Below the pieces are notes generated by a model, which was not told where the DNA came from, made no database searches, and saw only the letters and a program-made list of their open reading frames with translations. The translations under genes and the position numbers were made by a program. A DNA stretch of 64,000 bases. Source: Minisyncoccota bacterium (GTDB taxonomy: Bacteria; Patescibacteriota; Minisyncoccia; Phycocordibacterales; CAJBRS01). Where the stretch lies: NCBI GenBank assembly GCA_017881075.1, contig JADGRH010000003.1, forward strand, positions 128,682 through 192,681. The letters run 5' to 3'. Of this stretch, positions 4,301-53,661 are shown in pieces; the first letter of the stretch is position 1; each line of letters opens with the position of its first letter.

Positions 4301-4684
4301 ATGAGAGCCAATTTTCTTCTTTCTTTCAGTACAATTATACTCGTCTCACTCCTTCTTTTTTCTCCCGTTTATGGTCAGAATCCGAATTACGGAATTGTGG
4401 GATGCGGAAATAATTGCGATTGGGGACAGCTAATTCAATTGGGACAGAATATTATTGGTTACCTTGTTTTAATTGCTGGAAGTTTGGCCGCCATCTCCTT
4501 CGCTTATGCCGGGTGGCTTTATCTTACTTCCGGTGGCGACCCCTCAAAAGTTACAAAAGCCAAGGATATTTTTGTGAAAGTGGCGATAGGATTGATTGTC
4601 GTCTTGTGTGCCTGGCTGATCGTTCACGAGGTGCTTAAACTATTAGGCGTAAATCAAAACTATTCATTAATAAAGACATCATAA
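4301..4684 (+). CDS. TrbC/VirB2-like pilin-family small membrane protein, paralog 1
   Basis: Signal peptide, then two hydrophobic helices joined by a short charged loop (SGGDPSKVTKAKD); 127 aa; first of a tandem paralog array. Confidence 0.5.
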   Translation: MRANFLLSFSTIILVSLLLFSPVYGQNPNYGIVGCGNNCDWGQLIQLGQNIIGYLVLIAGSLAAISFAYAGWLYLTSGGDPSKVTKAKDIFVKVAIGLIVVLCAWLIVHEVLKLLGVNQNYSLIKTS

Positions 4685-4686
4685 AC

Positions 4687-5106
4687 ATGAATCGGAAAAT
4701 AATAATTATACTGATTATCTTTAATCTTTTTTTTATTACACCGGGTTTGGTTGTTGGCCAAGTAATACAAAGTAGTGGAATTGGAGGGCCTAGTCAATCT
4801 AGTGGAATTGGAGGAACTAGCCAATTATGTAATCCTCTGGGAGGGTGCAGTTCCAGTGGCCCCAACGATCTTACGGCATTCATTAAATTAGTATTGGCAG
4901 CAGTGGTGAAGATCGGGGCGGTAGTGGTGGTTTTCTTTGTTATCTATTCCGGCTTCCTTATGGTTACGGCCCAAGGCAATGAGGAGAAATTAAAGAAAGC
5001 CAAAAACGCCCTTCTTTGGACTTTAGTGGGAGCGGCCATTCTTCTGGGAGCCCAACTTCTAGCGGACGTTATTAGCAACACTATAACTGCCTTAAGTAAA
5101 CCTTAA
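4687..5106 (+). CDS. TrbC/VirB2-like pilin-family small membrane protein, paralog 2
   Basis: Signal peptide, Gly/Ser-rich linker, two hydrophobic helices with an AQGNEEKLKKAKN loop. Confidence 0.5.
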   Translation: MNRKIIIILIIFNLFFITPGLVVGQVIQSSGIGGPSQSSGIGGTSQLCNPLGGCSSSGPNDLTAFIKLVLAAVVKIGAVVVVFFVIYSGFLMVTAQGNEEKLKKAKNALLWTLVGAAILLGAQLLADVISNTITALSKP

Positions 5107-5116
5107 GCAAATAATT

Positions 5117-5419
5117 ATGTTTTTAATTCCACAATTAGTCTACGCCCAAGCCACCGATTTTAAAGGTTTGATTAAAATTGCTCTAGACTTATTGAAGAGC
5201 GTCATCCCAGTTATTATTGGGATAGGTCTGGTAGTCTTTCTTTTTGGTATCGTGCGCTACATTACGCCTGGGCAAAGCGAAGAAAAAATCAAAGAAGGGA
5301 GAAATATGATGATCTATGGTCTTATTGCCCTCTTTGTAATGACAGCCGTCTGGGGATTGGTGGGGGTCTTAACCAGTACTTTCTTTGGAGGGGCATTGAG
5401 CATTCCGCAGCTGCAATGA
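5117..5419 (+). CDS. TrbC/VirB2-like pilin-family small membrane protein, paralog 3
   Basis: IGIGLVVFLFGIVRYIT...GRNMMIYGLIALFVMTAVWGLV architecture shared with paralogs 4-6. Confidence 0.5.
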   Translation: MFLIPQLVYAQATDFKGLIKIALDLLKSVIPVIIGIGLVVFLFGIVRYITPGQSEEKIKEGRNMMIYGLIALFVMTAVWGLVGVLTSTFFGGALSIPQLQ

Positions 5420-5514
5420 AGTGAGAAGCCAAACTGCTATTTGACAGACTAAGACTTGGGCAAGCGCCCCGGAGCGGTCTGTCAAATGGCACGTTTGGCG
5501 AAGCACTTCATTGC
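5412..5514. repeat. palindromic repeat element family 1, copy A (between pilin paralogs 3 and 4)
   Basis: Core TAAGACTTGGGCAAGCGCCCCGGAGCG with inner arms TTTGACAGAC / GTCTGTCAAA and an imperfect outer 38-bp inverted repeat beginning GCAATGAAGTG and ending CACTTCATTGC; the 5' arm overlaps the stop codon of ORF 5117..5419. Confidence 0.8.
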
Positions 5515-5632
5515 CTGGACACAGAAGGAAATAATCCCCAGGTAAGACTTTAAAATTATTGAGATTGTGGTATGATTTAGAGGTAAATAGCTTATAAAAA
5601 GGTCATCGCTTATTAATTAAATTATCCTTTAA

Positions 5633-5995
5633 ATGAAAAAGTATCTCATTGGTTTATCAGTACTGGCCATGCCAGCAATAGCCTTCGGTCAGAATCTTCA
5701 GAATCTTAGCAATTTAGTCGGTTCCGCTACCCGTATTATCAATCAGTTAGTACCTTTTGCCATTGGCTTGGGTTTAATCGCATTCCTTTTTGGAATCGTC
5801 CGATACATCACCGCGGGCGCTGGGGAAGACAAGGCCGCCGCCAGAAACCTGATGATCTACGGCATCATCGCTCTCTTTGTGATGGTATCTGTCTGGGGAT
5901 TGGTCAATTTCATCGGCCAGGCTCTAGGTATCAATAATCCTGACACTCAACGAGCTCCAAATGTTCCTACCAATCAATCGTCAACTGGACTTTAA
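5633..5995 (+). CDS. TrbC/VirB2-like pilin-family small membrane protein, paralog 4
   Basis: Signal peptide; FAIGLGLIAFLFGIVRYITAGAGEDKAAARNLMIYGIIALFVMVSVWGLVNFIG; preceded by an extended -10 promoter TGgTATGAT at 5568-5576. Confidence 0.55.
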   Translation: MKKYLIGLSVLAMPAIAFGQNLQNLSNLVGSATRIINQLVPFAIGLGLIAFLFGIVRYITAGAGEDKAAARNLMIYGIIALFVMVSVWGLVNFIGQALGINNPDTQRAPNVPTNQSSTGL

Positions 5996-6014
5996 GATAA
6001 TCCATAAGCGGATT

Positions 6015-6398
6015 GTGAAAAAATACATAATTACTTCTTTGGTGTTACTACTGATATCGGTAATTTTACCTTTATTGGCCCATGCTCAATCTGGAGGAGG
6101 GGGTGGGGGAGGCTCGCCCTCTTTAGTGAAGCTGGTTCAATCTGGCACTAAAGTTTTAGACGCTCTCATTCCTTTCGCCATCGGACTTGGATTAGTGGTC
6201 TTTCTTTTTGCCATCATTAAATATGTGACGGCCGGTAGCGGCGAAGACAAGGCCGCCGCCAGAAACCTGATGATCTACGGCATCATCGCTCTCTTTGTGA
6301 TGGTATCTGTCTGGGGTCTAGTGAATTTTATTGGCGGTGCTTTGGGAATAGATCAGAACGCGAAGGTCTTGGCGCCGAGCTTACCCGAACTTCCATAA
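6015..6398 (+). CDS. TrbC/VirB2-like pilin-family small membrane protein, paralog 5 (probable GTG start)
   Basis: ORF track gives 5961..6398, but that overlaps paralog 4. In-frame GTG at 6015 gives a clean signal peptide, KKYIITSLVLLLISVILPLLAHA. A poly-Gly linker follows, then the same two-helix core as paralog 4. Confidence 0.5.
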   Translation: MKKYIITSLVLLLISVILPLLAHAQSGGGGGGGSPSLVKLVQSGTKVLDALIPFAIGLGLVVFLFAIIKYVTAGSGEDKAAARNLMIYGIIALFVMVSVWGLVNFIGGALGIDQNAKVLAPSLPELP

Positions 6399-6404
6399 TA
6401 ATAT

Positions 6405-6677
6405 ATGAATGTTGATGGCCTTCTGAAAAATATTGATAATCTCATCCTTAACCCTTTAATCTTTCTGATGTTCGGCGTAGCTCTGGTGGTTTTCTTGTGG
6501 GGTGTGGTGCAATTTATTATCGCCGCCGATAGCGCCGAAGGCAGAAAACTCGGCCGCCAAAGAATTCTCTATGGCATCATTGGTATGTTCATCATGGTCT
6601 CGGTCTATGGTATTCTCTACATCATTATCCATACCTTCGGTATCAGCTCCACTGCTCTTGATTCGGTGAAGAAATAG
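6405..6677 (+). CDS. TrbC/VirB2-like pilin-family small membrane protein, paralog 6
   Basis: Two hydrophobic helices with an ADSAEGRKLGRQR loop; no obvious signal peptide; 90 aa. Confidence 0.45.
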   Translation: MNVDGLLKNIDNLILNPLIFLMFGVALVVFLWGVVQFIIAADSAEGRKLGRQRILYGIIGMFIMVSVYGILYIIIHTFGISSTALDSVKK

Positions 6678-9921: not shown

Positions 9922-10022
9922 TTGAAGTATTTGGAGTCAGCACGAGCATTTTGGAGACTAAGACTTGGGCAAGCGCCCCGGAGCGGTCTCCAAAATGCTC
10001 GTGCTGGCGGAGAATACTTCTA
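9922..10022. repeat. palindromic repeat element family 1, copy B (intergenic infB-rbfA)
   Basis: Core TAAGACTTGGGCAAGCGCCCCGGAGCG flanked by a perfect 20-bp inverted repeat AGCACGAGCATTTTGGAGAC / GTCTCCAAAATGCTCGTGCT, plus further imperfect outer arms. Confidence 0.8.
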
Positions 10023-11516
10023 TTACCTCCTTACTACCGTGTAAGCTTCTAATTTATCACCCGGCGCGCATTCAATCTTAGACTCTATCATTGCTCCGAA
10101 TTCGCTGTCAGTACCGATCTCTTTTACTTTCGCCTTCATCTGTTGAAGTTCTTTTACTTTACCTTGGCCGATTAGCACATCACGGCGCATAATTTTGACA
10201 TCGTCGCCCACGCTGATTATTCCTTCCTCCACCCTTGCTCCCAACACCTGCTTATCTTTTACCTGGCTGAAAAGTTTCAGAACTTTTGCTACCCCCTTTT
10301 TCTCCTCCACCTCTGTCTTTGGAGTCTTTTCAATCACAGCTTTTGCCAACCACTCATTTAATTTGTAAATGATATCAAATGTTTGAATAGTGACACTCAT
10401 TCGCTCGGCTAGATTTTTAGTGGCGGGACTGACGTTAGCATTAAAACCGATGAGAAGAGTTTGCGGCTTACCACTTGCAATCTTTACGTCTTCGTCGGTA
10501 ATATCACCGATGGCGCTGTATAGAATCCTTAAGCCCACCTTTTCCGTCTCCATTTTTTTTAATTCGTATTCGATCGCTTCAATGATACCGGCGTTATCAG
10601 CTTTGATGATGATCGGAATGATAAATCTCTCCGGAGAATCTGCCTCCGCTTTTTCACTGGCCACTTTGCGTCTTGGTGTTTCGATAAAGGCTTCGGCCTC
10701 TTTTCTGGAGTAAAAAGAATGGAAGTAAGTTCCTGCCGCCGGCACGCTGTCAAAACCAATCACTCGAATGGGAGAAGAGAAAGTAGCCGATTCAATCTTC
10801 TTGCCCAAAAAATTTTCCATAAATCTGATCGGAGCGACACTTTCTCCGGCCACCACGAACATTCCCATTTTCAGAGTACCGCTCTTAATAATCATAGTAG
10901 CGGAAATACCACTTTCCTTGCTTCTGGCTACCTCAATGATGATGCCTTCGGCTGGCAGATCGGGATCCGCTTTCAACTCCGCAATATCCGAAATGAGGCC
11001 CAGCATATCTAAAAGTTCCGGTACGCCCTCTCCGGTTTTAGCCGAAATAGCCACTACGGGTGTATCTCCGCCATAGCCCTCAACATAAATCTCATTTTCC
11101 AAGAGAGAATTTTTAGTTCTCTCAATGTCGGCATTTTCTTTATCAATTTTATTTATAGCAACGACAAAAGGCAGTCCGAGCTCCTTGATTTGTTGATAGG
11201 CTTCAGTCGTCTGCGGTTTCACTCCATCTTCGGCGGATACTACTAAGATGGCAATATCTGCGACACCGGCACCACGACCACGAAGGAGGCCGAAAGCTTC
11301 GTGTCCGGGAGTATCAAGAAAGGTGATTTTTTTCTGATTATGGACGACTTCATAAGCGGAGATATTTTGAGTGATTCCTCCAATCTCTTTATCTACCAGA
11401 TTGGTTTTTCGGATGTAGTCGAGAAGAGTCGATTTTCCATGGTCAATGTGCCCCATTACTACAATGATGGGCGGTCGATCAAGAAGTTGTGATGGTTTAA
11501 TACCGGTTATAGTCAT
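10023..11516 (-). CDS. infB: translation initiation factor IF-2 (short form)
   Basis: G-domain [17 protein letters not shown] and NKID motifs, then IF2 domain II and C-terminal domains; 497 aa. Confidence 0.95.
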
Positions 11517-11544
11517 TAGCTTATTTATACATTATATTGTTAGA

Positions 11545-12810
11545 GTGAACAAGAAAAACAGCCACCAAAGAATTTATCTTGATTATGCCTCCATCACTCC
11601 GCTTGACAGTCGGGTGTTGAAAGTGATGAAGCCTCTTCTCGATTCCAATTTCGCCAATCCATCTTCTTTATATGCAGAAGGTGTCGAATCCAAAAAGATA
11701 ATGGAAAATGCCAGAAAGAGAGTGGCTAAAATTCTCTCGGCCCACGCCGATGAAATCATATTTACTTCAGGAGGTACTGAAGCCAACAATCTAGCACTCC
11801 TCGGACTTTTTCAATCAGCCAAAACAATTATAAAAAAACCACAGATCATTATCACCAACATTGAACATCCGTCCATTATGGAAGTTTGCAGCGAGATCAA
11901 AAGACGGGGAGGGAAAGTGAAAGTGGTGAGAGTGGAAGCAAACGGAATTGTTGATCCAAAAAAAATTAAAAAAGCCATTACAAATCGCACAATTCTAGTG
12001 TCGGTGATGTATGCGAATAATGAGGTTGGCACTATTCAGCCGATTCGAGAGATTGCGAAAGTTATCAGACAGTTTAGGAAAACCGACGGGCGAAACCAAC
12101 AACTTTTTGAGAGACTAAGACTTGGGCAAACGCCCCGGAGTGGTCTCTCAAAAAGTTCGTCCGCGAGCCCCTCTACTTTTCCGTATCTTCATACTGACGC
12201 CAGTCAAGCCGCTAATTATCTTGACCTCAATGTAGAGCGTCTCGGTGTTGATCTTATGACCATTGATGGAACGAAAATTTATGGGCCGAGAGGCGCCGGC
12301 TTTTTGGTCTGCCGGCGCCGGACGCCGCTCTGGCCGATCATTTTCGGCGGTGGCCAGGAAAGTGGGCGGCGGGCGGGCACCGAAAACCCGCCCGCCGCCC
12401 TAGGTCTCGCCACCGCCTTGGAAATCAGTCAGAGCGAGAAAAAAAGGGAGGCGGCCCGACTCTGCCGCCTCCGAGATTATTTTATTTCCGAAATCAGAAA
12501 ACATTTTCCAAAAGCAATCTTAAACGGCGATGCCAAAGAACGTCTTCCCAACAACGTTAACTTTTGCTTTCCCGATCTGGACGCGGAGTTTGCCGTGCTT
12601 CAATTGGATGCCAAAGGCATCGCCATCTCCTCGGTTACTAGCTGTCAGAATCTTAATACAGATTCGTCTTCTTATGTGGTCCAAGCCATTCAGACAAAAA
12701 ATTGTCAGAAAAGCTCATTACGTTTTAGTTTTGGTCGAAAAACCACTAAAAAAAATCTTGATTTTTGCTTAGAAGTTCTCTATAGTATAATTAATGGAAG
12801 AGCTCACTAA
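11545..12810 (+). CDS. cysteine desulfurase (class V aminotransferase, IscS/NifS-like) carrying an in-frame repeat-element insertion
   Basis: IYLDYASITPLD, GGTEANN and the PLP-lysine region FPYLHTDASQA. The ORF-track start at 11446 overlaps infB; the in-frame GTG at 11545 gives a conventional N-terminus. An approximately 33-aa insertion at nt 12085-12170 is encoded by repeat element 1. Confidence 0.85.
   Translation: MNKKNSHQRIYLDYASITPLDSRVLKVMKPLLDSNFANPSSLYAEGVESKKIMENARKRVAKILSAHADEIIFTSGGTEANNLALLGLFQSAKTIIKKPQIIITNIEHPSIMEVCSEIKRRGGKVKVVRVEANGIVDPKKIKKAITNRTILVSVMYANNEVGTIQPIREIAKVIRQFRKTDGRNQQLFERLRLGQTPRSGLSKSSSASPSTFPYLHTDASQAANYLDLNVERLGVDLMTIDGTKIYGPRGAGFLVCRRRTPLWPIIFGGGQESGRRAGTENPPAALGLATALEISQSEKKREAARLCRLRDYFISEIRKHFPKAILNGDAKERLPNNVNFCFPDLDAEFAVLQLDAKGIAISSVTSCQNLNTDSSSYVVQAIQTKNCQKSSLRFSFGRKTTKKNLDFCLEVLYSIINGRAH
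12101..12156. repeat. palindromic repeat element family 1, copy C (inside cysteine desulfurase ORF, in frame)
   Basis: AACTTTTTGAGAGAC-TAAGACTTGGGCAAACGCCCCGGAGTG-GTCTCTCAAAAAGTT with 13-bp perfect arms; translated in frame as QLFERLRLGQTPRSGLSKS. Confidence 0.8.
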
Positions 12811-22197: not shown

Positions 22198-22767
22198 TTA
22201 TCCTTTGATTAATTTTAACAATGATATAAAATCTTCTACTCTGTGGGAAACTCTAATAATATATTTTGGAGTCTTTGTTGTTGAGATTTTATAGACATGA
22301 GCTTTGAAGCCAAGGTTTTTTATCATACTCATTACATCCAATGCCAGGCGCTCTATAATTGTTGTGAAATTTACCATGTTGTAGCCTCTATCGAAATATA
22401 TACAACCATCAGTTTGAAATAAACCTCGTAAACATTCAATTGAATAAATCTCATTTTCTTTTATCCATCTAGGAACCGTCACATCCTGTTTAAATTTGGA
22501 ACCCTCCTTTGCTTTCCATCCAAGAAGATTTTCAAGGTGATTTGAATAACAGGAGACATCAAGGCAATTTTCACCCCGCTTAATAGTAGATATTTGATTG
22601 TTAGGAAACAGCTCTTTTAAAGATTTTATTATTGTATTTATTAGATTAGGATATTTTAAATCGCAACTAATCCTGAGTCTCACGGCTCGTCCATTCGAGT
22701 TGGAAAGATTGCCATCGCCGATAGCCAAGCCAATTACATATGCCTGTAGTCTTCGGTTAGGGCTTAT
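22198..22767 (-). CDS. LAGLIDADG homing endonuclease (free-standing, abutting tRNA-Leu; start codon uncertain)
   Basis: Two LAGLIDADG motifs, LAIGDGNL and LFQTDGCIY. The ORF-track start at 22848 lies inside the tRNA gene. No ATG or GTG occurs between the tRNA 3' end (22770) and motif 1; the only in-frame candidate is TTG at 22728. Confidence 0.8.
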   Translation of the reverse strand: MSPNRRLQAYVIGLAIGDGNLSNSNGRAVRLRISCDLKYPNLINTIIKSLKELFPNNQISTIKRGENCLDVSCYSNHLENLLGWKAKEGSKFKQDVTVPRWIKENEIYSIECLRGLFQTDGCIYFDRGYNMVNFTTIIERLALDVMSMIKNLGFKAHVYKISTTKTPKYIIRVSHRVEDFISLLKLIKG

Positions 22768-22769
22768 CT

Positions 22770-22854
22770 TGGTGCCAGAGGTGGGACTTGAACCCACAAG
22801 CCTTGCGGCACGCGATTTTGAGTCGCGCATGTTTGCCAATTTCATCACTCTGGC
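22770..22854 (-). tRNA. tRNA-Leu (CAA), CCA encoded
   Basis: Reverse complement gives acceptor GCCAGAG / CTCTGGC, anticodon stem CGCGA/TCGCG with loop CTCAAAA, a long variable arm, T-arm GTGGG-TTCAAGT-CCCAC and a CCA tail. Confidence 0.85.
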
Positions 22855-22955: not shown

Positions 22956-23933
22956 ATGTCACAATTTTTTAGCGATTCAATATTTTGGATAGAGGTGGAA
23001 AAAGTGAAGCCGAACCCCTTCCAGCCGCGCCGGGATTTTGACCAGGCACGACTTCAGGACCTTGCTGATTCCATTCGGATGTATGGCGTCCTCCAGCCAT
23101 TGGTGGTGACGCGTCACGAAGTGGCGCGGGAGGATGGCGGTCTTCAGACCAAGTACGAATTGATCTCCGGCGAACGGCGGCTTCGGGCTTCAAAATTAGC
23201 AGGCCTTTCCCAAGTGCCAGTCATTATCCGCGCCCAAGAAGAAAATGAAAGAGTAAAATTGGAATTAGCAATCATTGAGAATCTTCAGCGGGAAGATCTA
23301 AATCCTGTTGATCGCGCCCGCGCCTTCAAACGGCTCGCCGAAGAATTTAATTTCAAGCACATTCAGATTGCCGAAAAGGTGGGAAAGAGTCGCGAATATG
23401 TCACCAATACTATGCGACTACTCTCTCTACCGGAAGAAATGTTGAATGCGGTTTCTGCAGGGAAAATTTCTGAAGGTCACACCCGACCACTCTTAATGTT
23501 GGTTGATCGGCCGGAAGAGCAGGTAACTCTTTTTAAGGAAATTGTTTACAAGAAATTAACTGTTCGCGAAGCGGAAGCTATTGCTCGCCGAATTGCTTTT
23601 GATCGAGTTCGCAAGAAAGAGCGAGCTTTTGATCCGGAACTTGTTGAGCTGGAAGAAAAATTAACCGAGTCGCTCGGCACCCGAGTGCAAATAGAGCGCA
23701 AGGATCAGGGCGGGCGACTAGTCATTGATTTCTTTTCCAATTCCGATTTGCAGGGAATTCTTGATTTGGTGAAATCCAATATACCAAAACAGAGAACCGA
23801 AATGATGGAAAAATTCATCGCGGCCGCACCCGAGCCCGAATCGGTTTCCGACGTATCCAATGACGATCGTTCTACCGAGGAAAAAAAGTCCGACGAAGAA
23901 GACCTCTACTCCATCAAGAATTTCTCTATTTAA
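22956..23933 (+). CDS. parB: ParB/Spo0J-family partition protein (no adjacent parA)
   Basis: ParB box ISGERRLRASKLAGLSQVPVII, HTH region, C-terminal dimerisation and an acidic tail. Confidence 0.85.
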   Translation: MSQFFSDSIFWIEVEKVKPNPFQPRRDFDQARLQDLADSIRMYGVLQPLVVTRHEVAREDGGLQTKYELISGERRLRASKLAGLSQVPVIIRAQEENERVKLELAIIENLQREDLNPVDRARAFKRLAEEFNFKHIQIAEKVGKSREYVTNTMRLLSLPEEMLNAVSAGKISEGHTRPLLMLVDRPEEQVTLFKEIVYKKLTVREAEAIARRIAFDRVRKKERAFDPELVELEEKLTESLGTRVQIERKDQGGRLVIDFFSNSDLQGILDLVKSNIPKQRTEMMEKFIAAAPEPESVSDVSNDDRSTEEKKSDEEDLYSIKNFSI

Positions 23934-26190
23934 CCCCGGCTAGTTTATGCGGATTATGGTTCGGACAGACTTTGCTCGAGCATCGTTCCGGAATAGTTTT
24001 TGTTCCTTCCATCATTAGTGATCCGCACATCGGACAAAGGTTGCCGGTCGGTTTTGCTTTGATGGCAGTTTTGCATTGAGGGTAATTTGAACAGCTGAAG
24101 AAAAGGCCGAATTTGCCTTTTCTCTCCACCATAAAACCTTTTTTGCAGACGGGACATTCTACACCGGTAGAATTTTGTTTCTCCAGCTCCTTATCTTTTT
24201 TAATATATTTGCATTTCGGATAATTGGCGCAGGAAATGAAGGCACCGAATTTTCCTTGGCGAAGAACGAGGTCGCCATCATCAAGCGGGCATTTCTCGCC
24301 GGTTAATTTTGGTCCCTCAATTTCTTTTCCTTCAATAGTCCTAGCTCCGGCGCATTTTGGGAATGTTCCGCAACTCATGAATTTGCCGTTCTTACCGAGC
24401 TTAATGATCATGGCGGCACCGCAGACCGGACACTTAAATTCGTCCGGAGCGGCGCCGAGATTAGTGATTTTTTCCATAGTTTTATCTTTTGATTTAACCT
24501 CTTTTGTAAAAGGAGTGTAAAAGTCTTTTAAAGTTTTAGCGTATTCGCGTTTCCCGGAGGCAATATCATCCAGCTCATCTTCCATTTCGGCCGTGAACGA
24601 ATCACTGATGTAATTGGTGAAATGATTTTCCAGAAATGTTGAGACCACATCTCCGGTATCAGTTGGCACCAAGGCCTTATTAATCTTTTCAACATAGCCG
24701 CGGTCATCCAGGGTCTTAATGATTGAAGCATAAGTAGACGGTCGGCCGATGCCTCGTTTTTCCAATTCTTTCACCAGCCCGGCTTCGGAGTATCTTGGTG
24801 GCGGTTGGGTTTCTTTTCCCTCGGAATCAATCTTCAGAAGATTTAATTTCTCTCCAAGCTTCACTTTTGGCAACACCACATCTTCGCCACTCGCTTCCGG
24901 ATCGGCAGAGAGCCAGCCAGGAAACAGAACTCGCTGTCCGGTGATAGCGAAATCAGGAATGCAGAGGTCAGACCTCTGCATTGGTTGCTTTGCAGAGGTC
25001 TGACCTCTGCATTCCTTGTTGTTTACATTCGCTGTAATTTTACTTCGAAGCATTTTAGCCTCCGCCATCTGTGATGCCGCCGTTCTCTGCCAGATCAGTC
25101 GGTAAAGTTTGTGCTGTTCGTCGTTAAGGCCGGCTGTTTCTACCGACATGTGGCTGGGGCGAATAGCCTCGTGTGCCTCCTGAGCATTTTTACTTTTAAC
25201 GGCATAAGTGCGGGGACTCAAATATTCTTTACCGTATTTTTTCTCAATAATTTCAAATATTTGTCCTAACGCTAATTTACTGAGGTTGGTGCTGTCGGTT
25301 CTCATATAGGTGATGTGACCGGACTCGTAAAGTTTTTGAGCAATACCCATGGTTCGGGACGGAGCGAAGCCAAGACGCGAACTAGCCGTTTGCTGAAGAG
25401 TGGAAGTAATAAATGGGGCACGCGGAGCCCGCTTTACTTCGGTCTCAGAAAGATCGACTATCTTCCAGTCGTCTTTATGGATCTCTCCACCAATTTTCAA
25501 TATTCTTTTAACTTCTTTTTCATCGCGCGGTTCCTCCGAACACACTAAGGAAAATCTTTGTGCTCGGAGCCCTGAGGTATTCGAAGGGCTACTCTCAACG
25601 TCAGCATTAATGACCCAGAATTTTTCCGGTTTAAATGCCCGAATTTCCCTTTCCCGTTCCATAATGATTCGAAGGGCGGGAGATTGAACTCGGCCGGCAG
25701 AGAGGCCGTAACGCACTTTTTTCCAGATGAGACCTGATAGGTCGTATCCCACCAAGCGATCCAGGACGCGGCGTGCTTCCTGGGCGCGTCGGAGATTTTG
25801 ATCAATTTCCCTCGGGTTTTCAAGGGCTTCAAGAATAGCCTCTTTAGTAATTTCATTATAAGTTACTCTCTGGATTTTGGTTTTATCGAGGCCTAAATCC
25901 AAGAGCTCGCCGATGTGCCAAGCAATGGCCTCACCCTCGCGGTCCTCGTCAGTGGCCAGAATAATTTTCTCTGCCTTTTTAGCTAGATGTTTCAGCTCAG
26001 CAACCACCTTCTCCTTTCCCTTACTGATTTCGTAATGAGGAATGAATCCACCTTCAATATCGATGGCTTTCTTATTGCTTTTTGGCAGATCACGAACGTG
26101 GCCAACGGAAGCTTTCACATCGTATTCATCGCCAAGATATTTTGAAATAGTCTTGGCTTTGGCGGGCGATTCTACAATTAATAACTTCAT
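23926..26190 (-). CDS. topA: DNA topoisomerase I, with in-frame palindromic element insertion
   Basis: Toprim N-terminus MKLLIVESPAKAKTISKYLG, an active-site Tyr region and C-terminal Zn-ribbon repeats (CPxCG); 754 aa. Repeat element 2 at 24967-25025 encodes ECRGQTSAKQPMQRSDLCI. Confidence 0.95.
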   Translation of the reverse strand: MKLLIVESPAKAKTISKYLGDEYDVKASVGHVRDLPKSNKKAIDIEGGFIPHYEISKGKEKVVAELKHLAKKAEKIILATDEDREGEAIAWHIGELLDLGLDKTKIQRVTYNEITKEAILEALENPREIDQNLRRAQEARRVLDRLVGYDLSGLIWKKVRYGLSAGRVQSPALRIIMEREREIRAFKPEKFWVINADVESSPSNTSGLRAQRFSLVCSEEPRDEKEVKRILKIGGEIHKDDWKIVDLSETEVKRAPRAPFITSTLQQTASSRLGFAPSRTMGIAQKLYESGHITYMRTDSTNLSKLALGQIFEIIEKKYGKEYLSPRTYAVKSKNAQEAHEAIRPSHMSVETAGLNDEQHKLYRLIWQRTAASQMAEAKMLRSKITANVNNKECRGQTSAKQPMQRSDLCIPDFAITGQRVLFPGWLSADPEASGEDVVLPKVKLGEKLNLLKIDSEGKETQPPPRYSEAGLVKELEKRGIGRPSTYASIIKTLDDRGYVEKINKALVPTDTGDVVSTFLENHFTNYISDSFTAEMEDELDDIASGKREYAKTLKDFYTPFTKEVKSKDKTMEKITNLGAAPDEFKCPVCGAAMIIKLGKNGKFMSCGTFPKCAGARTIEGKEIEGPKLTGEKCPLDDGDLVLRQGKFGAFISCANYPKCKYIKKDKELEKQNSTGVECPVCKKGFMVERKGKFGLFFSCSNYPQCKTAIKAKPTGNLCPMCGSLMMEGTKTIPERCSSKVCPNHNPHKLAGVK
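24967..25025. repeat. palindromic repeat element family 2, copy 1 (inside topA, in frame)
   Basis: GGAATGCAGAGGTCAGACCTCTGCATT, spacer GGTTGCTT, TGCAGAGGTCTGACCTCTGCATTCC. Each half is itself a perfect palindrome, and the two halves are reverse complements of each other. Confidence 0.85.
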
Positions 26191-52278: not shown

Positions 52279-53661
52279 GTGTCCGCTCGCATGTCAATAT
52301 CATTAGCACAACTAAAAAAACTACCCGATGAACCAGGGGTCTACTTCTTTAAGAATAGGAAGTCGATTCTTTATATTGGAAAGGCTACCTCGTTGAAAGA
52401 TCGGGTCAGAAGTTATTTGGGCAAAGATTTAATTCATACTCGCGGTCGATTGATCGTGGACATGATGGAAAAAGCTACCGAAATTGATTTCTGTAAAACT
52501 GACTCGGTTCTTGAGGCTTTGATATTGGAAGGAAATCTCATCAGCAAGCATCAACCTTATTACAATACCGACGCCAAGGACGATAAGAGTTTTAATTATG
52601 TTGTAATCACCAAAGAGGATTTCCCGCGAGTAATGCTCATTCGTGAGCGCGCCTTTCATAAAAATCCTCAAGCTGCTCTCGGTGACATAAAACCAAAATA
52701 TATTTTTGGACCATATCCGCATGGTACGCAATTAAAGGACGCTATGAAAATTGTTCGCCGTATTTTCCCGTATCGTGATCAGAGATGTATTCCAGCTTCC
52801 GAACAATTAGCGCGAGGAAAAGAGATCCCCAAGCCCTGTTTCAATCACCAAATTGGCCTATGTCCCGGAGTCTGTACCGGTGAGGTAAATAAAAAGGAAT
52901 ATGCTCGCACTGTAAACCATCTGCGGCTATTTTTTGAGGGAAAAAAAGGAAAACTAATCAAACAACTGGAAAAGGAAATGAAGATGTACGCCAAGAGTCA
53001 GGAATTTGAAAAAGCTAACGAAGTGAAACGAACGATTTACGCTCTCGGACATATTCAGGACGTATCTTTAATCAAATCCGATTCCAATCTGTCATCCTGG
53101 AGTTTCATCCAGGATCCAGGGTTATATAAACATACTCTGGATTCTGGTGTTCACCAGAATGACAGAGGTAGACCATTCAGAATGGAAGCGTACGATGTTG
53201 CACACATGGGCGGCAAAAATACCACGGGAGTAATGGTAGTAAGTGAAAATAGGGAAATCAAAAAAGCCGATTACCGAATGTTTAAGATTCGGGGAAACAA
53301 AGGAGTGAATGACATTGCCGCTCTTGTCGAAACCTTAGTAAGGAGATTCAATCATCCAGAATGGCGCTATCCGGACGTTATCGTTCTTGACGGCAGTACT
53401 GCTCAGCTTAATGTCGCCAGAGAGGTGTTGAACAAACTTGCAGAGGTCAGACCTCTGCAGGAAGATAGCAGAGGTCTGACCTCTGCAAGTCCGATCAAGC
53501 TGGTGGCGGTCGTCAAGGACGACCGCCACCGCCCAGAGAGGATAATTGGTGATGAAAAAATAGCCAAAGAATACAAGAAAGAGATTCTGCTTCTAAACAA
53601 CGAAGCCCATCGATTCACCATCAAATATCATAAAAAATTGCGCCGGAAATCTTTTCTTTGA
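52279..53661 (+). CDS. uvrC: excinuclease ABC subunit C, short form lacking the C-terminal HhH domain, with in-frame palindromic element
   Basis: GIY-YIG N-terminus (GVYFFKN...ILYIGKA), an RNase H-like endonuclease region (RMEAYDVAHMGG); 460 aa; repeat element 2 at 53437-53489 encodes AEVRPLQEDSRGLTSAS. Confidence 0.9.
   Translation: MSARMSISLAQLKKLPDEPGVYFFKNRKSILYIGKATSLKDRVRSYLGKDLIHTRGRLIVDMMEKATEIDFCKTDSVLEALILEGNLISKHQPYYNTDAKDDKSFNYVVITKEDFPRVMLIRERAFHKNPQAALGDIKPKYIFGPYPHGTQLKDAMKIVRRIFPYRDQRCIPASEQLARGKEIPKPCFNHQIGLCPGVCTGEVNKKEYARTVNHLRLFFEGKKGKLIKQLEKEMKMYAKSQEFEKANEVKRTIYALGHIQDVSLIKSDSNLSSWSFIQDPGLYKHTLDSGVHQNDRGRPFRMEAYDVAHMGGKNTTGVMVVSENREIKKADYRMFKIRGNKGVNDIAALVETLVRRFNHPEWRYPDVIVLDGSTAQLNVAREVLNKLAEVRPLQEDSRGLTSASPIKLVAVVKDDRHRPERIIGDEKIAKEYKKEILLLNNEAHRFTIKYHKKLRRKSFL
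53437..53489. repeat. palindromic repeat element family 2, copy 2 (inside uvrC, in frame)
   Basis: CTTGCAGAGGTCAGACCTCTGCAGG, spacer AAGATA, GCAGAGGTCTGACCTCTGCAAG; same core as the topA copy. Confidence 0.85.

Follow-up and report, generated by a model that had tools for sequence, protein, structure and literature searches.

Rickettsia palindromic elements (RPEs), roughly 100-150 bp long, have entered many Rickettsia genes without disturbing the reading frame (PMC10969869; PMC6649704, citing Ogata 2000, 2002). Hairpin repeats of another kind, the repetitive extragenic palindromic sequences (REP/REPIN), are believed to be acted on, in the form of hairpins of single-stranded DNA, by a Y1 (HUH) enzyme encoded in single copy (PMC3116915, PMC3733652). 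Perfect palindrome arms are known to arise by template switching, and for the coding palindromes of Nematomorpha mitochondria either template switching or arm-to-arm conversion has been proposed to keep the arms identical (PMC6649704). Here we describe a palindromic element, defined by a conserved 27-nt core, that occurs three times in a 64,000-nt stretch of DNA from a Minisyncoccota bacterium (contig JADGRH010000003.1, positions 128,682 to 192,681; hereafter the window), once within a gene for a cysteine desulfurase. We consider it probable that these copies belong to a palindromic repeat family that operates at the level of DNA, with a conserved loop on a variable stem, and that is analogous to the RPEs. 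Literature searches by sequence, by peptide, and by the terms candidate phyla radiation plus MITE (miniature inverted-repeat transposable element) and Patescibacteria plus palindromic returned no earlier account of the element, and in the literature so searched we found no description of its architecture.

The core (TAAGACTTGGGCAAGCGCCCCGGAGCG), of which an earlier note on this DNA had reported three copies, is indeed present, exactly at 5450-5476 and 9959-9985 and with two mismatches at 12116-12142, always on the + strand; dinucleotide-preserving shuffles of the window contained no match at all. We refer to these copies as A, B and C in their order along the window. In all three the core sits at the tip of a long hairpin, with predicted folding energies of -49.1 kcal/mol for copy A (z -7.9 against shuffles), -60.8 kcal/mol for copy B (z -9.7) and -40.3 kcal/mol for copy C (z -5.6). 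The inner arms, of pattern TTTTG-rr-GAC and GTC-yy-CAAAA, and the outer arms of about 34-38 nt in copies A and B likewise agree with what that note had described. Copy A (5413-5514, + strand; covariance model score 78.7 bits) lies between two T4SS_pilin (PF18895) paralogs, and its core is enclosed by imperfect outer arms at 5413-5449 and 5477-5514. A purine-rich AGAA/GAAG internal loop marks the base of its inner stem, and the open reading frame (ORF) at 5117-5419 has its stop codon within the outer stem (GCAATGAAGTG / CACTTCATTGC). Copy B is a 95-nt hairpin (9925-10019, + strand; 86.4 bits) that makes up the whole spacer between infB and rbfA and is antisense to both genes; near-perfect arms at 9936-9958 and 9986-10008 surround the core at 9959-9985, and the imperfect outer arms extend the pairing to 9925-9958 and 9986-10019. 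Copy C (12095-12166, + strand; 67.7 bits), delimited by comparison with an ortholog (P0002/L041), is a 72-nt in-frame insertion in the desulfurase gene, and consists of a left arm (12098-12115), the core (12116-12142, + strand, TAAGACTTGGGCAAACGCCCCGGAGTG), a right arm (12143-12157) and degenerate outer arm sequence. Its core departs from the consensus by a G to A change at 12130, which replaces Ala by Thr, and by a synonymous C to T change at 12141, both at unpaired positions in the small inner hairpin and the internal loop.

The gene that carries copy C (11545-12810, + strand) encodes a cysteine desulfurase of the IscS/NifS type, for which the Aminotran_5 match (Pfam E 1.7e-62) is split around the insert. 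A GTG start at 11545 is suggested by orthologs, within a mechanical ORF of 11446-12810; a public gene call begins at Met28 and thereby truncates the conserved N-terminus. The mechanical ORF, counted from 11446, also overlaps the start of the divergently transcribed infB gene (11516) by 70 nt. Copy C is read in frame and free of stops as NQQLFERLRLGQTPRSGLSKSSSA, which adds 24 aa: the closest ortholog (P0002, 75% identical) reads KVGKR-SPHSFPY where the window reads KTDGR-NQQLFERLRLGQTPRSGLSKSSSA-SPSTFPY. The earlier note had proposed an insertion of about 33 aa. The extra residues are real, and the two core point changes and the in-frame reading were correctly described, but the length is 24 aa relative to the closest ortholog and 27 aa relative to the modal loop, which spans 21 aa in 85 homologs as compared to 48 aa here. 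Against more distant proteins the excess is larger, at about 35 aa over A. fulgidus IscS2, and alignment to IscS, NFS1 and NifS structures in the PDB proceeds in two blocks separated by about 35 additional residues. The motif FPYLHTDASQA downstream of the insert, which had been taken for the pyridoxal phosphate (PLP) lysine motif, is instead the His/Asp/Gln PLP-contact motif, and the lysine lies further on in TIDGTKIYGP.

The remainder of the protein looks intact. None of the 26 columns that are invariant among 86 homologs has changed, and these columns include K244 (the PLP lysine), D218, H108 and C367, which is catalytic. An AlphaFold2 model reached a mean predicted local distance difference test (pLDDT) value of 91.3 and a predicted template modelling (pTM) score of 0.90, with low confidence confined to about residues 181-212, which is the insert, and Foldseek matched this model to IscS, NFS1 and NifS with TM scores of 0.83-0.96. 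The residues of copy C may lie in a surface loop. Taken together, these comparisons support the reading of copy C as an insertion, in frame and specific to its lineage, into a length-variable loop of what appears to be an otherwise intact enzyme. The same loop, between IRxFR and HTDASQ, holds long and unrelated inserts in other orthologs (54 aa in P0113, 42 aa in P0006, 36 aa in P0067 and 35 aa in P0118), and is therefore an insertion hotspot.

Both copy B and copy C proved to be variable at syntenic sites. The rbfA-infB / desulfurase-Trypsin_2-ClpB neighbourhood is kept in the window and at two further loci, L041 and L040. The window has both copies; L041 has copy B in the same spacer, with diverged arms, and lacks copy C; and L040 lacks copy B, so that infB and rbfA abut, and has copy C in reverse orientation with a compensated GGCC/GGCC inner stem. 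The desulfurase ortholog that has the element reversed at the site of copy C is 62% identical. At the empty site, both arms of copy C are missing along with the core, and only its outermost 9 nt (TCGTCCGCG compared with the reverse complement of GACGGGCGA) resemble an inverted copy of the flank. From the outer repeats of copies A and B, the earlier note had suggested that the element entered, or expanded, hairpins that were already there; for copy C, the lack of a counterpart to the arms in the empty-site ortholog argues that the arms arrived with the insert.

To establish how far the element extends beyond this locus, we searched for the exact 23-nt core in one genome per species and recovered 46 copies on 39 contigs from 19 assemblies, a count of assemblies that is a lower bound since variant cores were left out of that search. 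The core is thus not confined to the three places in which it had been noticed. All core-bearing genome records that name a taxon belong to Patescibacteria (Saccharibacteria, Parcubacteria, Kaiserbacteria and the unclassified 'Patescibacteria group'). Individual genomes can be rich in copies: at least 14 are present in bin I-1_bin-176, and several copies with similar arms occur within one genome, for example in CAZETG01 and CAYRNS01. When the flanking strands of the core were fixed and the inner hairpin was left free, a metagenome search gave 67 matches (57 unique), all with related inner hairpins, among which the variants TTGGGCAAGCGCCCC, TCGGGC.., CGGGCAAGCGCCCTT and TTGGCCAAGCGGCCC accounted for 30, 9, 8 and 7 matches, respectively, the last by a compensatory G-C to C-G swap. 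A covariance model found 107 copies in 662 kb, with divergent cores in only a few. Therefore, the claim that this is a genuine repeat family is borne out by more than 100 copies, every one of them a hairpin, and as part of the explanation that we favour, the family is probably a palindromic DNA repeat specific to Patescibacteria. A phage origin was rejected, as no exact core match was found among 2.9 million viral contigs. A known structured RNA family was also rejected: at the gathering threshold, Rfam 15 reported tRNAs alone in the window and nothing on the element, and at E <= 10 the full hairpin drew only sub-threshold, generic microRNA-hairpin noise and the core alone drew nothing.

The conserved part of the element is the 27-nt tip together with about 5 nt of each inner arm. 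The core is asymmetric, with a 5' strand (TAAGA), a small hairpin (CTT-GGGC-AAGC-GCCC-CGG) and a 3' strand (AGCG). Pairing in the inner hairpin survives G-C to C-G swaps in several backgrounds, while the AAGC loop is nearly invariant and the TAAGA and AGCG strands are fixed. The arms, in contrast, are unique in sequence to each copy. Among 57 copies their median length is 24 bp and the longest reach 49 bp; they are composed of 1525 Watson-Crick pairs, 35 G:T pairs and 46 other mismatches, so that wobble pairs are not favoured. Relative to the core, left arms are A-rich and right arms T-rich. Covariation in the stem is extensive: all 21 modelled arm pairs have changed on both sides, 92.6% of cells are paired as compared to 36-54% in slid controls, and 813 cells are changed on both sides versus 223 in shuffles. 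We dropped a reading of the TAAGA/AGCG internal loop as a K-turn, loop E or UAA/GAN motif, which had been made by eye only and offered no canonical K-turn register.

A subset of copies also carries short tags at the foot of the hairpin: the stem is preceded by ..GYGRAG and followed by CGRAR.., as at the 9936/10008 flanks of copy B and in L065, L018, L051, L062, L090 and others. In L065 the two stem-base tags are CGGAGT and CGGAGT, and CGGAG occurs within the core as well. These tags could be a pair of cleavage sites, a target preference or a tandem G.A loop. A role of the arms as guides was considered and discarded, given that in the fetched DNA the arms match only other copies and, in one genome, a few core-less 'solo arm' repeats. 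The latter were seen in the Saccharibacteria genome CAZETG01 (L022 971-1014 and L025 533-563), where one arm plus flank is present without the core or the second arm; they are either what deletions have left behind or unoccupied sites of some larger repeat.

Orientation of the element relative to genes is unbiased, even between neighbouring copies: 13 copies between co-directional genes are antisense and 8 are sense, and within ORFs 4 are antisense and 3 are sense. Moreover, single elements have turned around where they stand. Loci L034 and L069 are identical over 78 and 76 nt, including the asymmetric outer arms, with the 27-nt core exactly reverse-complemented between them, although the perfect part of these arms measures 35 bp and assemblers may mis-orient a loop between perfect repeats. 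A second palindrome family (core CTGTAGTCGTRRCGGGCACG) provides an independent case. Two desulfurase orthologs with 87% identity (L042 at about 600-700, CAJBRS010000021.1; L043 at about 690-790) carry it in the loop that holds copy C here; between them the whole element is inverted and both orientations are in frame, and since the arms of this family are imperfect, assembly error is excluded for that inversion. These examples show that elements can be reverse-complemented in place. At other fixed sites it looks as if the whole element has been replaced. For L039 6700-6910 compared with L088 2183-2393, and for L089 980-1170 compared with L091 1400-1590, the strains are near-identical, with 97-100% identity in the flanks, but blocks of the arms have diverged so that 22-25% of arm positions differ. 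Each such difference is matched by a compensating one on the opposite arm, and the core variant has changed as well.

The desulfurase is not the only housekeeping gene to have received the element. In-frame inserts with homology on both sides were also found in UvrB (about 35 aa), YchF (about 29 aa), MurB (about 37 aa) and IleRS (about 28 aa). The core is free of stops in four of its six frames, and all four are used across different genes, giving peptides of the types KTWASAPER, RLRLGQxPRSG, DRSGALAQVL and DRPLRxAxPSLSLS. Indeed, each of the approximately seven independent coding copies among more than 100 uses one of these four open frames, and none of them breaks a gene. Tolerance of the repeat in the desulfurase, as the earlier note had it, is thus matched by recurrence in other genes and lineages. 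A third palindrome family, made of paired TGCAGAGGTCWGACCTCTGCA units, was observed in the window at 24960-25018 and 53439-53487, with predicted folds of -62.7 and -51.6 kcal/mol, respectively. These copies lie in frame within TopA (ORF 23926-26190, - strand) and UvrC (ORF 52279-53661, + strand), and therefore in-frame palindromes are pervasive in the genome from which the window derives.

How might such a family arise and persist? In the explanation that we favour, it would spread as DNA, copied by a trans-acting enzyme that recognises the hairpin tip. Once inserted, the arms might be kept complementary by template switching within the palindrome or by arm-to-arm conversion, which would occasionally flip the element, and insertions into genes would persist only where a surface loop is permissive and the frame is free of stops. 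Arms restricted to Watson-Crick pairs, random orientation and inversion in place all fit such DNA-level maintenance. Several observations nevertheless weigh against this explanation. The flanks of the copies share no robust target-site duplication, the longest common substring averaging 2.97 as compared to 2.69 when permuted (maximum 3.0), and GGA/CGGAG-like direct repeats border only a subset of copies. No linked mobiliser emerged from all-against-all clustering of 422 neighbouring proteins, in which no family was present in more than six loci and the top clusters were housekeeping proteins, and no transposase was seen among the window ORFs that were checked. A tblastn search with IS608 TnpA and E. 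coli RAYT (REP-associated tyrosine transposase) queries did bring up one Y1_Tnp gene (L071 9899-10327, - strand), 1.3 kb from one copy, but 11 loci with homologous Y1 genes (L104-L114) lack the element, so that the transposase family is not associated with it there. The family is IS200-like, 144 aa long and drawn from the same groundwater metagenomes, mostly on contigs of about 0.5-1.5 kb. The IS200-like end hairpins (CCCTGCGG-CTTG-CCGCAGGG and CCCCGTCCG-CTTG-CGGCGGGG, with an element terminus of ..GATTTT) share with the core only a GCTTGCC-like loop. Furthermore, a conserved tip with variable ends is the reverse of what is found in MITEs and REPs, and the architecture of the RPEs is also the reverse of this layout. 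Finally, that the insert of copy C is translated is something that we infer from the sequence.

A further contrary observation concerns the core itself. Over 11 pairs of orthologous sites, differences amounted to 304/3216 in the flanks (9.5% per site), 82/562 in the arms (14.6%) and 5/297 in the core (1.7%), so that the rate of change in the core is some 6-9 times below that in the arms or flanks. Similarly, the same rare variant of the core is present in L095 and L099, which match at all 41 nt of core and inner arms; their arms are about 32% diverged, with compensation, and their coding flanks are 87% identical. Such constraint, at single loci and across classes, is left unexplained by the reading that we favour; it is unlike a decaying selfish repeat, and speaks for either function or conversion between copies. 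One alternative is thus that the core is a host-functional signal at the hairpin tip, presented on DNA (single-stranded or cruciform) or on RNA, to which a conserved protein of Patescibacteria binds and which is selected at each locus; the family would then be a domesticated or functional motif and not selfish DNA, with the coding copies being incidental. We regard this as possible, if on the unlikely side. Besides the constraint in place, it is in keeping with the presence of the same 23-27 nt in Saccharibacteria, Parcubacteria and Kaiserbacteria, with the scarcity of decayed cores among the 107 copies, and with an inner hairpin whose pairing outlasts base-pair swaps around a fixed AAGC loop and fixed TAAGA/AGCG strands. 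It sits poorly with a patchy distribution, the exact core being found in only 19 species-representative genomes (a lower bound), with copy numbers that vary widely between genomes, with presence and absence at syntenic sites, and with a core that is randomly oriented to genes and can flip; no candidate binding protein was identified. A more specific form of the idea, to which we give slightly less weight and which we consider rather unlikely, is that the core would be more than a handle for transposition and would be read on single-stranded or cruciform DNA by such a protein under selection at each locus, while the palindrome around it renews itself, its arms being rewritten and the element flipping and at times being replaced as a whole where it stands. 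If this were the answer, the element would represent a new class of chromosomal hairpin, of which the in-frame gene insertions are a by-product.

A role in RNA seems quite improbable. By this account the element would be a structured RNA within transcripts, such as a site for RNase III or other processing, a stabiliser of mRNA, a terminator or a small RNA, and the stem would covary under selection at the RNA level. The very strong covariation, the folds that are far more stable than shuffles and the copies located between genes in operons would all be expected, and two details point the same way: U.G is the commonest state of one inner-hairpin pair (81/102), and the purine-rich GRA/GRA loop at the stem base of a subset of copies resembles tandem G.A RNA motifs. 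An RNA-level role is nonetheless disfavoured because orientation is unbiased with respect to transcription and wobble pairs are lacking. The loop sequence is not the same in the reverse complement, about 3% of arm cells are G.U as compared to about 7% for other mismatches, and, as noted above, not even the core alone has an Rfam match at E <= 10. An intrinsic terminator in particular was rejected: a scan of the window that counted only loops of 3-8 nt flagged none of the three copies, and the right flanks of the element lack a strong T run. Still less credible, and in our judgement highly improbable, is the proposal that copy C is not translated at all, being removed from the mRNA or protein in the manner of an intron or intein, or that the desulfurase is a pseudogene. 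The insert does form a stable mRNA hairpin and the public gene call does start late, at Met28. In opposition to this, the insert is stop-free and a multiple of three in length, the roughly seven coding copies all lie in open frames without breaking a gene, the invariant catalytic residues are all retained and the rest of the protein models confidently. Rfam reveals no resemblance to known self-splicing introns, and an insert of 24 aa is too small for an intein. We therefore retain, as the probable explanation, a palindromic repeat maintained as DNA.

One neighbouring feature of the window touches copy A, which stands among small membrane proteins, five or six paralogs clustered at 4301-6677; the two that were tested match T4SS_pilin (PF18895). 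Separately, a homing-endonuclease-like ORF with a LAGLIDADG_3 domain (PF14528) lies at 22198-22770 (- strand), directly downstream of a tRNA gene (22773-22854) that it partly overlaps.

'Selfish' palindromes that are inserted in frame into essential genes have previously been treated as a peculiarity of Rickettsia. Their occurrence in the candidate phyla radiation, another group of host-dependent bacteria with reduced genomes, suggests that they are a general consequence of genome reduction or of weak selection; three or more element families and no fewer than seven different housekeeping genes are involved here. The family offers a natural system for the study of palindrome maintenance and inversion, and its 27-nt core could serve as bait for a hairpin-recognising enzyme or binding protein. 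In metagenome-assembled genomes it may also mark assembly breaks and variation between strains. For annotation it carries a warning, as the inserts add 24-37 residues to conserved enzymes.

Of the known systems, the RPEs come closest to the element, by description only. Both are short palindromes in the reduced genomes of host-dependent bacteria; both have repeatedly entered unrelated housekeeping genes without a shift of frame, and the enzymes are reported or predicted to remain functional; both come as several families per genome, here with a second family in the desulfurase loop of other species and a third in TopA and UvrC of the window; and both are without a known transposase. In RPEs, however, conservation extends from end to end, the encoded peptide is conserved and identity as repeats is lost with time, whereas in the element described here only the tip is conserved, the arms are unique and yet complementary, the core is constrained in situ and the elements flip. 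The host lineages are unrelated, and only about seven of more than 100 copies lie within genes.

The labels that the earlier note had chosen, MITE or REP-like, do not hold. MITEs such as ERIC, Correia and QMITE resemble the element as small, non-autonomous hairpin repeats with in-frame fusions and effects on mRNA processing, but they need conserved terminal inverted repeats that stem from a parent insertion sequence, and target-site duplications (PMC10969869, PMC5896051), neither of which is seen here: the outer arms are unique to each copy and the centre alone is conserved, no robust duplication was detected, and no related or linked transposase was found. REP/REPIN sequences are likewise abundant, mostly intergenic hairpin repeats without target-site duplication (PMC3116915, PMC3733652), and their short conserved tag at the hairpin foot has a parallel in the GYGRAG and CGRAR of a subset of copies. 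In those repeats, however, it is the stem, together with the GTAG/CGTC tag, that is conserved, and variation falls in the loop or spacer, which is the opposite of the arrangement here, and analysis of neighbouring genes found no RAYT near any copy. The coding palindromes of Nematomorpha mitochondria are similar in being long, near-perfect inverted repeats that are actively maintained in translated genes (PMC6649704), but those are native coding sequence, share no conserved loop and are not dispersed, whereas the elements described here are insertions that belong to a dispersed family defined by its core.

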